NCBI RefSeq assembly: GCF_003991155.1 | Contig: NZ_CP031293.1 | From: Escherichia coli | GTDB lineage: Bacteria > Pseudomonadota > Gammaproteobacteria > Enterobacterales > Enterobacteriaceae | Strand: one strand, 5' to 3' | DNA: 64,000 bases | In this document: piece after piece, positions 18,329 to 44,952 of the stretch | Layout of the letters: the number at the start of each line of letters is the position of its first letter | Numbering within the stretch: the stretch's first letter is position 1 | Translations under genes and position numbers: made by a program | The notes under the pieces: model-generated | What the model was told of the DNA's origin: nothing | Databases searched by the model: none | The model's input: the letters and a program-made list of their open reading frames with translations, nothing else

Positions 18329-19219
18329 ATGGACATTTTTATTTCGAAAAAGATGCGCAATTTCATTTTATTAGCGCAAACCAATAATATTGCCCGGGCG
18401 GCAGAAAAAATCCATATGACGGCTTCGCGATTTGGCAAAAGCATTGCCGCGCTGGAAGAACAAATTGGCTATACGCTATTTACCCGCAAAGATAATAATA
18501 TCAGCCTCAATAAAGCCGGACAGGAACTGTATCAAAAACTGTTCCCGGTTTATCAACGACTTTCTGCGATTGATAATGAAATCCATAACTCAGGACGTCG
18601 TTCACGAGAAATTGTGATAGGCATAGATAATACTTATCCGACCATTATTTTTGATCAGTTGATTAGTCTCGGAGATAAGTACGAAGGCGTGACCGCCCAG
18701 CCAGTTGAGTTCAGCGAAAATGGCGTTATCGATAATCTTTTTGACCGTCAGTTAGATTTTAATATCTCCCCACAGCATGTATCTGCACGAGTTCAGGAAC
18801 TGGAAAACCTGACTATCAGTGAACTACCGCCGCTGCGATTGGGCTTTCTCGTTTCTCGCCGTTATGAAGAGCGACAAGAGCTGCTTCAGGAGCTGCCCTG
18901 GCTACAAATGCGCTTTCAGAATCGGGCCAATTTCGAAGCAATGATTGATGCGAATATGCGTCCTTGTGGGATCAATCCCACCATTATTTATCGTCCCTAC
19001 AGTTTTATGGCCAAAATCAGCGCCGTGGAGCGGGAACATTTTCTGACGGTGATCCCGCATTTTGCCTGGCGACTGGTGAATCCGGCAACGCTGAAATATT
19101 TTGATGCGCTGCACAGACCGATGTATATGCAGGAATATCTTTATTCAATCAGAAATCATCGTTATACCGCCACGATGCTTCAGCATATTGCTGAAGATCG
19201 TGACGGGACAAACCATTAA
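18329..19219 (+). CDS. ygfI: LysR-family transcriptional regulator
   Basis: ORF 18329..19219; N-terminal HTH, start codon choice (18329 or 18353) uncertain; 3' end abuts the sbm remnant. Confidence 0.8.
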
Positions 19220-20310
19220 CCCAGCATCGATCCGGTTGCAATTAAATTACGGTGTAAGTCGAAGACGTGGCTAAGATCGTGGTGAATATGTCCGCCGGAC
19301 GCATTTTCCAGATAGCGATGCAGATAATCCCGACACATAGGATGTGCACAATGATCAATGGTGGTGCGGATAACGTTGTTATACGGATCCTGTGCGCCAA
19401 ATCCACTGACCGCTTCGCTCCATAAATAACGTGCCGCACGCAACATGGCGGCGTTCATAAACAGATCCATGCCAATGCCGAAGAAAAACGACAGGCGAGG
19501 GACGAAGCCATCAATTTTCAGCCCGGCGGAGATTGCTGCTTTGATGTACTCAATCCTATCGGCGAGCGTAAATGCTACCTGCTGCACGCAGTTGGCACCC
19601 GCTTCACCCATGTGGTAACTGCTGATACTGATGGTATTAAATCGCGGCATGTTGCCGGAACACCAGGCGATGATGTCTGCGATAATACGCATTGACGGTT
19701 TTGGCGGGTAAATATAGGTATTGCGGCAGAGGTACTCTTTGAGGATATCGTTCTGAATGGTGCCGGTCAGTTTATCGGATGTAACACCTTGCTCTTCTGC
19801 GGCGACGATATAAAACGCCAGTACTGGTAGCACTGCGCCATTCATGGTCATAGAAACCGACATTTTATCCAGCGGGATCTGGTCGAACAGGACTTTCATA
19901 TCTTCCACGGTGTCGATAGCGACGCCCGCTTTGCCGACGTCGCCCGCCACGCGTGGGTTATCGGAGTCGTAGCCTCGGTGGGCGGCAAGGTCAAACGCAA
20001 CGGAAAGACCTTTTTGCCCGGCGGCCAGGTTACGGCGATAAAAAGCGTTGGACTCTTTTGCTGTCGAGAAACCAGCATACTGACGGATGGTCCACGGTTG
20101 GGTGGTATACATAGTGGCACGCGGGCCACGAACGTAGGGTGGCAAACCAGGAAGAGTACCCGTCACCTCCAGATTATCGAGATCGGCTTCGGTATACAGC
20201 GGCTTGATAGCGATCCCTTCCGCGGTTTGCTGAACCAGCGAGTCGACAGTTTTCTCCCGACGGCTCAATTCATTGTTGGCAAGCTGTTGCCACACCAGCA
20301 CGTTAGACAT
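19216..20310 (-). pseudogene. scpA: Methylmalonyl-CoA mutase (sbm/scpA) 5' remnant; rest of the operon absent
   Basis: ORF 19216..20331 matches the N-terminal ~330 residues of Sbm from MSNV... ([19 protein letters not shown]...), then diverges and terminates; no argK/scpB/scpC sequence follows. Confidence 0.75.
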
Positions 20311-21406: not shown

Positions 21407-21832
21407 TGCTGTTGTCTGCTCCTGGTAAATGCTTTTTCCTGCACTATGACACAATTTTGTGTCGGGTTGCATATACCGAAGCCGTTGGTGGGTAACATTT
21501 GTATCAGTGGTTAACGCGCAGCTTAAAAGATCAGGGATTTGCGCTAATGCATTTCGCTCAGCGAGTTCGCGCCCTGGTTGTGTTGAATGGCGTGGCGTTA
21601 TTGCCTCAGTTTGCCTGTAAACAGGGGCTTGCGAACGGGGAACTGGTGCGCCTGTTTGCACCGTGGAGCGGCATACCCAGACCGTTGTATGCTTTACTTG
21701 CGGGGCGAAAGGGGATGCCCGCCATTGCGCGATATTTTATGGATGAGTTAACCACGCGGCTTGCCAACGGGGTCTGAATCGCTTTTTTTGTATATAATGC
21801 GTGTGAAATTTCATACCACAGGCGAAACGATC

Positions 21833-22747: not shown

Positions 22748-23980
22748 ATGGCAAAGGTATCGCTGGAGAAAGACAAGATTAAGTTTCTGCTGGTAGAAGG
22801 CGTGCACCAAAAGGCGCTGGAAAGCCTTCGTGCAGCTGGTTACACCAACATCGAATTTCACAAAGGCGCGCTGGATGATGAACAATTAAAAGAATCCATC
22901 CGCGATGCCCACTTCATCGGCCTGCGATCCCGTACCCATCTGACTGAAGACGTGATCAACGCCGCAGAAAAACTGGTCGCTATTGGCTGTTTCTGTATAG
23001 GAACAAACCAGGTTGATCTGGATGCGGCGGCAAAGCGCGGGATCCCGGTATTTAACGCACCGTTCTCAAATACGCGCTCTGTTGCGGAGCTGGTGATTGG
23101 CGAACTGCTGCTGCTATTGCGCGGCGTGCCGGAAGCCAATGCTAAAGCGCATCGTGGCGTGTGGAACAAACTGGCGGCGGGTTCTTTTGAAGCGCGCGGC
23201 AAAAAGCTGGGTATCATCGGCTACGGTCATATTGGTACGCAATTGGGCATTCTGGCTGAATCGCTGGGAATGTATGTTTACTTTTATGATATTGAAAACA
23301 AACTGCCGCTGGGCAACGCCACTCAGGTACAGCATCTTTCTGACCTGCTGAATATGAGCGATGTGGTGAGTCTGCATGTACCAGAGAATCCGTCCACCAA
23401 AAATATGATGGGCGCGAAAGAGATTTCGCTAATGAAACCCGGCTCGCTGCTGATTAATGCTTCGCGCGGTACTGTGGTGGATATTCCAGCGCTGTGTGAC
23501 GCGCTGGCGAGCAAACATCTGGCAGGGGCGGCAATCGACGTATTCCCGACGGAACCGGCGACCAATAGCGATCCATTTACCTCTCCGCTGTGTGAATTCG
23601 ACAATGTCCTTCTGACGCCACACATTGGTGGTTCGACTCAGGAAGCGCAGGAGAATATCGGTCTGGAAGTTGCGGGTAAATTGATCAAGTATTCTGATAA
23701 TGGTTCAACGCTCTCTGCGGTGAACTTCCCGGAAGTCTCGCTGCCACTGCACGGTGGTCGTCGTCTGATGCACATCCACGAAAACCGTCCGGGTGTGCTG
23801 ACTGCGCTCAACAAAATTTTTGCCGAGCAGGGCGTCAACATCGCCGCGCAATATCTGCAAACTTCCGCCCAGATGGGTTATGTAGTTATTGATATTGAAG
23901 CCGACGAAGACGTTGCCGAAAAAGCGCTGCAGGCAATGAAAGCTATTCCGGGTACCATTCGCGCCCGTCTGCTGTACTAA
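22748..23980 (+). CDS. serA: D-3-phosphoglycerate dehydrogenase, 410 aa
   Basis: ORF 22748..23980; matches recalled SerA including the C-terminal ACT domain. Confidence 0.95.
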   Translation: MAKVSLEKDKIKFLLVEGVHQKALESLRAAGYTNIEFHKGALDDEQLKESIRDAHFIGLRSRTHLTEDVINAAEKLVAIGCFCIGTNQVDLDAAAKRGIPVFNAPFSNTRSVAELVIGELLLLLRGVPEANAKAHRGVWNKLAAGSFEARGKKLGIIGYGHIGTQLGILAESLGMYVYFYDIENKLPLGNATQVQHLSDLLNMSDVVSLHVPENPSTKNMMGAKEISLMKPGSLLINASRGTVVDIPALCDALASKHLAGAAIDVFPTEPATNSDPFTSPLCEFDNVLLTPHIGGSTQEAQENIGLEVAGKLIKYSDNGSTLSAVNFPEVSLPLHGGRRLMHIHENRPGVLTALNKIFAEQGVNIAAQYLQTSAQMGYVVIDIEADEDVAEKALQAMKAIPGTIRARLLY

Positions 23981-24164: not shown

Positions 24165-24310
24165 ACGGTAAAGCCCTCACCGAAGCGAGGGCTTGAAGGA
24201 GAAGGGTTATGATGCGACTTGTCATCATACTGATTGTACTGTTACTCATAAGTTTCCCAGCTTATTAACAGTCAGTCTCAGGGGAGGAGTCATCCTCCCT
24301 TACCCTTACT
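24165..24310 (-). ncRNA. sibC: Sib-family antisense RNA antitoxin covering ibsC; ends approximate
   Basis: Inferred from the Ibs ORF on the opposite strand and flanking hairpins (24168-24189 and 24282-24299); boundaries not determinable from sequence alone. Confidence 0.45.
24209..24268 (+). CDS. ibsC: Type I toxin small hydrophobic peptide, Ibs family, 19 aa
   Basis: atgatgcgacttgtcatcatactgattgtactgttactcataagtttcccagcttattaa encodes MMRLVIILIVLLLISFPAY; not in the supplied ORF track (too short); sits in the serA-fau intergenic region where K-12 carries sibC/ibsC (recall). Confidence 0.7.
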   Translation: MMRLVIILIVLLLISFPAY

Positions 24311-24368
24311 CACTAAATTAGGTTAAAGAATCAACGATGTCAATCAGGGCGATGCAGGTGTGTCGCCC

Positions 24369-24917
24369 TCACCACTCCCAGACTTTCGACGGTGTAACCA
24401 CCGCAGGAAGAGGGATATCCCACTCTTCAACGGGGAGTTTTTCCACCAACTGACAATCATGCGCATAACCCACCGGTTGCATTTTATAGTGCTGCCAGTT
24501 TTGTAAGGTCCGATCATAAAAACCACCGCCCATTCCCAGGCGCTGACCGTACTCATCAAAGGCGACCAGCGGTGTGATCAACACGTCTAATCGGGAAAGG
24601 GGTAGCACGTCACGCACATCCAGTTTTGGCTCATGGATCTTCAACCTGTTCATCACCAGTTCGCTTTGCGGATGGTAGTTCAGGAACAGCAAATTACCGG
24701 CACTAAAGGGATGCAAAACTGGAAGATATACGCGCTTACCGGCGCGCCAGAGTTGTTCTATGAGTGGCTGGGTGTCGAGTTCGCCATCAAAAGAGAGGAA
24801 TACAGCGACCATATGTGCCATCACCACCGGAGGATAAGTCATCATCCGGGTAGCGGCTTGTTGACCCATTTCCTGCTGTTGTTCCGGCGTTAACGCACGA
24901 CGACGTTGCCGAATCAT
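24369..24917 (-). CDS. fau: 5-formyltetrahydrofolate cyclo-ligase, ~182 aa
   Basis: ORF 24369..25115 trimmed to MIRQRRRALTPEQQ; an upstream Met (start 24971) is an alternative; the long ORF form would overlap ssrS. Confidence 0.85.
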   Translation of the reverse strand: MIRQRRRALTPEQQQEMGQQAATRMMTYPPVVMAHMVAVFLSFDGELDTQPLIEQLWRAGKRVYLPVLHPFSAGNLLFLNYHPQSELVMNRLKIHEPKLDVRDVLPLSRLDVLITPLVAFDEYGQRLGMGGGFYDRTLQNWQHYKMQPVGYAHDCQLVEKLPVEEWDIPLPAVVTPSKVWEW

Positions 24918-24989
24918 TTTGCGGATTTCTTGTCGGGATAATGTCAGTGGAAGTTCTGGTAGTTGCGTCATGGCTGGTGCCAGATAAGA

Positions 24990-25175
24990 AGGGAATCTCC
25001 GAGATGCCGCCGCAGGCTGTAACCCTTGAACCCTTGGTTCAAGGTGAATGTGTCGTCGCAGTTTTAAGGCTTCTCGGACGGACCGAGCATGCTCACCAAC
25101 CGCGGAGCGCCACATTCTTGTGGTATGAAATATCGGCTCAGGGGACTGGCCCGCTTGCGAACATCTCAGAGAAAT
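24990..25175 (-). ncRNA. ssrS: 6S RNA
   Basis: Minus strand reads atttctctgagatgttcgcaagcgggccagtcccctgagccgatatttcatacc...ggcatctcggagattccct, matching the E. coli 6S RNA sequence as I recall it. Confidence 0.92.
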
Positions 25176-25228
25176 TTTGTCTTCACGGTTACTCTACCAC
25201 AGTAAACCGAAAAGTGTCATTCAAAGTT

Positions 25229-25612
<384 letters not shown>

Positions 25613-43763: not shown

Positions 43764-43853
43764 CGTCATCTTCTCTATAAAAAAGAGCGTGGATTGGGTA
43801 CAATCCCGCTCTTATCACCGCATTTTGACTAGCTCAATAAAAGAAATCAGACC

Positions 43854-44952
43854 ATGTTTGAAATTAATCCGGTAAATAATCGCATTCAGGACCTCACGGA
43901 ACGCTCCGACGTTCTTAGGGGGTATCTTTGACTACGACGCCAAGAAAGAGCGTCTGGAAGAAGTAAACGCCGAGCTGGAACAGCCGGATGTCTGGAACGA
44001 ACCCGAACGCGCACAGGCGCTGGGTAAAGAGCGTTCCTCCCTCGAAGCCGTTGTCGACACCCTCGACCAAATGAAACAGGGGCTGGAAGATGTTTCTGGT
44101 CTGCTGGAACTGGCTGTAGAAGCTGACGACGAAGAAACCTTTAACGAAGCCGTTGCTGAACTCGACGCTCTGGAAGAAAAACTGGCGCAGCTTGAGTTCC
44201 GCCGTATGTTCTCTGGCGAATATGACAGCGCCGACTGCTACCTCGATATTCAGGCGGGGTCTGGCGGCACGGAAGCACAGGACTGGGCGAGCATGCTTGA
44301 GCGTATGTATCTGCGCTGGGCAGAATCGCGTGGTTTCAAAACTGAAATCATCGAAGAGTCGGAAGGTGAAGTGGCGGGTATTAAATCCGTGACGATCAAA
44401 ATCTCCGGCGATTACGCTTACGGCTGGCTGCGTACGGAAACCGGCGTTCACCGCCTGGTGCGTAAGAGCCCGTTTGACTCCGGCGGTCGTCGCCACACGT
44501 CGTTCAGCTCCGCGTTTGTTTACCCGGAAGTTGATGATGATATTGATATCGAAATCAACCCGGCGGATCTGCGCATTGACGTTTATCGCGCGTCCGGCGC
44601 GGGCGGTCAGCACGTTAACCGTACCGAATCTGCGGTGCGTATTACCCACATCCCGACCGGGATCGTGACCCAGTGCCAGAACGACCGTTCCCAGCACAAG
44701 AACAAAGACCAGGCCATGAAGCAGATGAAAGCGAAGCTTTATGAACTGGAGATGCAGAAGAAAAATGCTGAGAAACAGGCTATGGAAGATAACAAATCTG
44801 ACATCGGCTGGGGCAGCCAGATTCGTTCTTATGTCCTTGATGACTCCCGCATTAAAGATCTGCGCACCGGGGTAGAAACCCGCAACACGCAGGCCGTGCT
44901 GGACGGCAGCCTGGATCAATTTATCGAAGCAAGTTTGAAAGCAGGGTTATGA
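43854..44952 (+). CDS. prfB: Peptide chain release factor 2, expressed via +1 programmed frameshift (43854..43928 joined to 43930..44952), 365 aa
   Basis: Frame 0 [25 protein letters not shown] ends at in-frame TGA 43929-43931; the +1 frame continues [18 protein letters not shown]... to 44952 (listed ORF 44071..44952 is the same frame); SPF and GGQ motifs present. Confidence 0.93.
43914..43932 (+). promoter_or_regulatory. prfB autoregulatory +1 frameshift site
   Basis: agggggtatctttgac: internal Shine-Dalgarno-like AGGGGG, then CUU UGA C slippery/stop context. Confidence 0.9.

Follow-up and report, generated by a model that had tools for sequence, protein, structure and literature searches.

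Introduction

Immediately upstream of fau on the minus strand of an Escherichia coli chromosome, the same nucleotides can be read as a gene for 6S RNA, as part of an extended fau open reading frame (ORF), and as an ORF of the opposite strand. Which of these readings describes a functional product, and how is that product linked to the expression of fau? We examined both questions in a stretch of 64,000 nucleotides from contig NZ_CP031293.1 (RefSeq assembly GCF_003991155.1), hereafter called the window. An initial annotation, made from the letters alone, had described a near-exact match to 6S RNA at 24990..25175 with a co-transcribed fau gene downstream, and had warned that ORF callers would run through the RNA in two frames.

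It is virtually certain that positions 24992..25175 (minus strand) constitute ssrS, the single chromosomal 6S RNA gene, in its canonical zapA-ssrS-fau setting and with a mechanism as described in the K-12 literature. The identity, position, strand and fold of the gene, its promoter motif and its neighbours were established by the present analysis, and the descriptions of mechanism and biogenesis are taken from published work on K-12.

Identity and fold of the RNA

An Rfam search (cmscan) of the window returned two matches at gathering thresholds, one to 6S/SsrS and the other to SIB RNA. The former (RF00013) extends over 24992..25175 on the minus strand with a score of 139.8 bits (gathering score 46.4, E = 2.2e-28), and it covers the full model, positions 1-187 of 187, with one non-standard pair. 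In the K-12 annotation, ssrS is 183 nt long and ends at the equivalent of 24993. Alignment with this gene (MG1655 b2911) gives 183 identical positions of 183 over 24993..25175. The PGAP annotation of the E. coli genome NZ_CP070170.1 likewise holds an ncRNA, 'ssrS: 6S RNA', with coordinates equal to those of the gene in the window. On these three grounds, the stretch is identified as ssrS, with a mature 6S RNA of 184 nt.

The covariance-model search and the alignment to E. coli ssrS, which had been proposed as checks with the initial annotation, thus both bear out its claim of a 6S RNA gene on the minus strand. Its interval had the exact 5ʹ end and ran 2 nt too far at the 3ʹ end, and its term 'near-exact' recognized a real match but understated the degree of identity.

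Of 5426 complete E. coli genomes, 5425 contain the 184-nt sequence exactly once. In 5424 the copy has an identity of at least 99%, and among the matches listed all copies are 100% identical and labelled 'ssrS: 6S RNA'. Around ssrS, 62 of 3959 aligned bases distinguish the window from K-12 (98.4% identity). None of these differences lies between 24951 and 25231, a block that includes the proximal promoter P1, 6S RNA, the spacer and the beginning of fau. The nearest flanking differences from MG1655 are a C-to-T change at 25231, by which zapA is four codons shorter, and, within the 5ʹ part of fau, a change at 24951 that looks silent.

The strand that carries the 6S RNA has a predicted minimum free energy of -80.5 kcal/mol (z = -5.6). 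None of 200 dinucleotide shuffles folds as well, and the stability of the structure is therefore far beyond what chance would provide. The fold is a long interrupted hairpin, and its closing stem, central bubble and terminal stem all align to RF00013. Nothing that contradicts the identification of ssrS turned up. The ssrS-fau locus described here is already known, is present in RefSeq annotation and is identical to the reference. Since few bacterial regulatory RNAs have been studied as thoroughly as 6S RNA and the copy in the window equals the reference, the scientific gain from its identification is nil, and its use is limited to a caution for annotation.

The locus in related genomes

For comparison, the fau loci of one Citrobacter, one E. 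fergusonii and one E. albertii contig were aligned with the window. In each, a full-length match to 6S RNA (about 138 bits) ends 20 nt upstream of fau, and zapA is found upstream. Both the P1 region and the 6S RNA are nearly invariant in the alignment, such that only five positions of the RNA vary among E. coli and the three relatives. The change C17U converts the pair 17-168 from G-C to G-U. In E. coli and E. albertii the pair 73-118 is G-C, whereas E. fergusonii has G-U at these positions and Citrobacter has A-U, which makes a compensatory series. Two further changes, U94C and A123G, affect nucleotides that are unpaired in the predicted fold. In these four close taxa, with one compensatory pair, the substitutions appear to preserve the helices by wobble pairing or compensation, as expected for a structured RNA.

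Open reading frames that cross ssrS

The protein-coding gene downstream of ssrS, fau (ygfA), encodes a 5-formyltetrahydrofolate cyclo-ligase and is annotated by PGAP as a CDS of 200 amino acids (WP_021541257.1) at 24369..24971 on the minus strand. Its product matches PF01812 with 160.8 bits (gathering threshold 27) over the whole profile (1-186 of 186), and the matched segment comprises residues 13-194 of the 200.

The two ORFs named in the initial annotation exist exactly as it gave them. Mechanical ORF listing extends fau to 24369..25115 (minus strand), which yields 248 amino acids. The 48 codons added at its 5ʹ end (24972..25115) take in 124 nt of ssrS. On the plus strand, an ORF of 108 amino acids at 24941..25267 spans the whole of ssrS. 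No Pfam family was matched by either the 48-residue extension or the 108-residue product, and neither the long form of fau nor the antisense ORF is called in the PGAP annotations that we inspected. Both are spurious, by-products of an RNA sequence that by chance lacks stop codons in those frames.

A true Fau protein of 248 residues, with an amino terminus encoded within the 6S gene, would nonetheless be consistent with a frame that is open in both E. coli and E. albertii. ORF callers also report such a product: the exact 248-residue sequence is found in a public collection of 15 billion proteins and is the gene called on eight short Logan contigs (<2 kb), and a 248-residue form even represents its cluster at 90% identity. 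However, the match to the cyclo-ligase domain sets in only at residue 13 of the 200-residue form, no Pfam family fits the 48 additional residues, and the extension is absent from both the PGAP and the K-12 annotations. More decisive is the fate of the frame in other taxa. In E. fergusonii it is interrupted by an in-frame TGA that results from C118U, and in Citrobacter it is shifted by a 1-nt deletion in the spacer and carries stops as well, although both genomes keep the conserved ATG from which a normal fau gene is read. The deletion in Citrobacter marks the spacer as non-coding. Furthermore, the substitutions track the pairing of the RNA rather than codons. Given the broken frame in relatives, the 248-residue reading is effectively refuted by the alignments, and we regard its chance of being correct as negligible.

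A genuine 108-residue protein antisense to 6S RNA is no more credible. Its frame is open, and a shorter counterpart of 95 residues is both open and called as a gene across the 6S RNA on the Citrobacter contig, but the ends of the two ORFs differ between the species. In the Citrobacter ORF, three of the four nucleotide changes that fall within the 6S RNA alter amino acids, among them an R to W replacement. An exact look-up of the 108-residue product in the same 15-billion-protein collection found nothing, and the ORF lacks a Pfam match and is unannotated in curated genomes. The near-invariance of the RNA on the opposite strand most simply explains why the antisense frame stays open. We therefore retain the reading of this DNA as an RNA gene crossed by two fortuitous frames.

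The concern for annotation that accompanied the first description of these ORFs has proved to be a practical one, as illustrated by the genes called on the eight Logan contigs and on the Citrobacter contig. Masking RNA genes before ORF calling would keep both a 248-residue 'fau' and an antisense 'hypothetical protein' from entering databases. Naive ORF calling goes wrong at a second site of the window as well, at about 43850..44950 (plus strand). Homology to the annotation of NZ_CP070170.1 indicates that this region carries prfB, which ORF callers split at its programmed +1 frameshift, and after it lysS.

The start codon of fau

Two starts within the accepted fau gene compete. The K-12 annotation begins a protein of 182 residues at the equivalent of 24917, whereas PGAP begins one of 200 residues at the ATG at 24971, which is 20 nt past the 3ʹ end of 6S RNA. 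This upstream ATG is conserved across genera, in Citrobacter as well as in E. fergusonii and E. albertii. By comparison, Citrobacter has CTG and E. albertii has ATA at the position used in K-12. The amino-terminal peptide that the longer form adds, MTQL(P/S)ELP..LSRQ(E/D)IR, is also conserved, and a two-codon indel keeps the frame. Because the ATG and the peptide are conserved, the K-12 start codon is replaced elsewhere and the PF01812 match already sets in at residue 13 of the long form, the 200-residue form is better supported, and the K-12 reference start is probably 18 codons (54 nt) too short. A start at 24971, which PGAP has already adopted, is thus fairly likely, and it would place fau only 20 nt from the mature 3ʹ end of 6S RNA.

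One consequence of such proximity might be that translation of fau is coupled to 3ʹ processing of 6S RNA or to Rho read-through, which we offer as speculation. If so, maturation of the 3ʹ end of 6S RNA would leave fau with a very short leader that lacks a Shine-Dalgarno sequence. The joint proposition, that fau starts at 24971 and that its translation is coupled to the cutting of the 6S precursor or to Rho read-through, strikes us as rather unlikely.

Promoters and probable shared transcription of ssrS and fau

A scan for promoter consensus elements, combined with the published distance to the transcription start, places the predicted sigma-70 promoter P1 at 25191..25220 (minus strand). Its -35 hexamer (ATGACA, 25220..25215) is followed by an 18-nt spacer, an extended -10 TG and a -10 hexamer (TAGAGT, 25196..25191). 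The implied start, 25184, is 7 nt past the -10 hexamer and 9 nt before the mature 5ʹ end of 6S RNA. For the K-12 gene, P1 is reported to depend on sigma-70 and to start at -9 (PMC9670815). The start predicted here from the promoter motif agrees exactly with that position.

A more distal promoter, P2, is described as being served by sigma-70 and sigma-38 and as starting 224 bp upstream (PMC9670815). In the window, this position falls within zapA (25229..25546, minus strand; PF05164, 74.6 bits; a PGAP CDS). The probable P2 at 25399..25435 (minus strand) was assigned from the published position and from hexamers read by eye: TTGCAA (25435..25430) and TAGAGT (25412..25407) are separated by 17 nt, with a start near 25399 (-224). 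These hexamers match the consensus at eight of 12 positions, which is under the threshold of the promoter scan.

The C-to-T change at 25231 that distinguishes the window from K-12 turns a CAA codon of zapA into TAA, such that the last four residues (QNFE) are lost and ZapA has 105 rather than 109 residues. The stop codon of zapA in K-12 overlaps the -35 hexamer of P1, whereas the gene in the window ends 9 nt upstream of that hexamer. The 105-residue ZapA was also found on one Logan contig.

Given that fau follows ssrS on the same strand after a spacer of 20 nt (24972..24991, minus strand), the arrangement reproduces the ssrS-ygfA operon, as initially annotated. Scans of the spacer found no promoter-like and no terminator-like site, and its sequence includes no evident Shine-Dalgarno motif. 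No intrinsic terminator was found past the end of fau: the terminator scan of the minus strand reported only one site inside fau (24542..24527) and one far upstream, a yield of two where shuffled sequences lead one to expect 1.6. A hairpin at the fau stop codon (AGGGCGA-N10-TCGCCCT, 24369..24346) was considered as a terminator and rejected because it has no T-run.

Might ssrS and fau be merely adjacent and expressed independently, in which case the term 'co-transcribed' would be wrong for this strain? Such independence draws some support from the report that the primary ssrS transcript normally ends by Rho-dependent termination inside ygfA (PMC3299989, summarising Chae et al. 2011), so that most transcripts lack a complete fau. 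Against it stand the 20-nt gap in which neither a promoter-like nor a terminator-like site was found, the tight linkage with equal spacing in Citrobacter, E. fergusonii and E. albertii, and the published description of joint transcription of 6S RNA and ygfA in a K-12 laboratory strain, in an arrangement conserved among enterobacteria and gamma-proteobacteria (PMC2848244). We consider independent expression very improbable and favour joint transcription. Since termination inside fau is the norm, 'co-transcribed' is a correct but partial description, and production of full-length fau mRNA depends on read-through.

By analogy with K-12, ssrS would be transcribed both from the proximal P1 by sigma-70 polymerase and from the distal P2, inside zapA, by polymerase carrying sigma-70 or sigma-38. 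RNases E and G would trim the 5ʹ end of the resulting precursors, whose 3ʹ end would be trimmed once transcription has terminated, with the aid of Rho, inside fau. Those transcripts that escape termination would carry the coding region for the cyclo-ligase.

Product RNA template and expected mechanism

[quoted passage not shown] Its release comes on outgrowth, when the RNA is copied by the polymerase from U44 into a product RNA (pRNA) of 13-20 nt (PMC9670815, PMC3299989). Experiments that demonstrated holoenzyme binding, inhibition and stationary-phase accumulation were conducted with the identical K-12 RNA (PMC9670815, PMC3299989, PMC2848244).

The template for this reaction is readily located in the window. 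The exact complement of the published pRNA oligonucleotide ATCGGCTCAGGGG (PMC9670815) corresponds to 6S nucleotides 32-44, or window positions 25144..25132. Synthesis would start opposite U44 (25132), and the 13-nt product, 5ʹ-AUCGGCUCAGGGG, would be templated by nucleotides 44-32 (25132..25144). The longest pRNAs, of 20 nt, would extend to 6S nucleotide 25 (25151), which gives a predicted template of 25132..25151 (minus strand). Because the complement of the pRNA is present at nucleotides 32-44, the functional core of the RNA is intact, with U44 in the central bubble and the conserved pRNA template downstream of it.

If the RNA behaves as it does in K-12, the mature 184-nt molecule would fold into the long interrupted hairpin described above, with a central bubble that imitates an open promoter. 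[quoted passage not shown] During outgrowth, synthesis of a 13-20-nt pRNA templated from U44 would cause 6S RNA to rearrange, and the polymerase would be set free.

Surrounding genes and the remainder of the window

The genes around ssrS occur in the order serA (22748..23980, plus strand), ibsC/SibC, fau, ssrS and zapA (all three on the minus strand), ygfB and pepP (plus strand), and this order is the same in K-12, in O157:H7 and in the best-matching genome, NZ_CP070170.1. The second Rfam match in the window is the SibC antitoxin RNA (SIB_RNA, 136.5 bits) at 24193..24343 (minus strand). Opposite this RNA is ibsC (24209..24268, plus strand; PGAP), a 19-codon type I toxin gene. In the matching genome, PGAP annotated the toxin but not the SibC RNA. 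Compared with its K-12 counterpart, IbsC carries the replacement S17P, and the region where sib and ibs overlap has three adjacent substitutions relative to K-12 (24257..24259) with two more at 24290..24291.

A 10-kb stretch around ssrS is 100% identical to strain FDAARGOS_1284 (NZ_CP070170.1), and between 2580 and about 30000 the window differs from that genome at one base. Equating the whole window with positions 819472-883471 of NZ_CP070170.1 was rejected, because the window has an additional IS621 insertion of about 1.28 kb and diverges past about 30 kb. From about 30000 to 64000, divergence amounts to 1.5-5% per 2 kb. This pattern suggests that recombination, with a boundary near ubiI/gcvT, sets this strain apart from the nearest relative that the collection contains.

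The insertion, at 1303..2579, is located in REP-like sequence downstream of tkt and carries a transposase ORF (1407..2387, minus strand). Other E. coli genomes carry the label 'IS110-like element IS621 family transposase' for the 326-residue product of this ORF. The sequence of the empty site is GTATGTAG|GCCTGATAAGCG, and the overlap consists of the 2 bp AG (CT on the minus strand). The non-coding end of IS621 encodes a 'bridge RNA', which we presume would fall in the roughly 190 nt between the start of the ORF and the end of the element (about 2388..2579, minus strand). Rfam gave no match in this interval at the gathering threshold.

Several gene remnants are annotated in the identical genome at sites that correspond to parts of the window. 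At 19216..20310 (minus strand), fragments of two pseudogenes adjoin each other, an 'acetyl-CoA hydrolase' without its amino terminus and a 'methylmalonyl-CoA mutase family protein' without its carboxyl terminus. To judge from K-12, this pair looks like the scar left where the scpA-argK-scpB-scpC (sbm) operon next to argP was deleted. A truncated remnant of a class II fructose-bisphosphatase is annotated at 7090..7263 (plus strand), and a 76-residue 'LysR substrate-binding domain-containing protein' fragment at 21547..21777 (plus strand), between argP and rpiA.

Comparison with known systems

The closest known system is ssrS of K-12 MG1655 (b2911), with which the window shares the RNA and the P1 region, the spacer and the initial codons of fau, as well as the neighbouring genes and their orientation. 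Relative to the RF00013 family, of which E. coli 6S RNA is the founding member, the gene matches throughout and exhibits no difference. The dual-function ssrS-ygfA (fau) unit of enterobacteria and gamma-proteobacteria (PMC2848244) has a layout in which the RNA is followed by the cyclo-ligase gene on the same strand, and the layout is the same here.

More distant parallels are provided by the 6S-1 and 6S-2 RNAs of Bacillus subtilis and by the actinobacterial RNA Ms1, which are likewise abundant structured RNAs that bind RNA polymerase, and B. subtilis 6S-1 also serves as a template for pRNA (PMC3299989, PMC9130861). However, their descriptions set these RNAs apart from E. coli 6S RNA by sequence, genomic context and processing enzymes. 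RNase J1, for example, is named as the processing enzyme in Bacillus (PMC10578484). Ms1 differs further in that it binds the core polymerase and not the holoenzyme.
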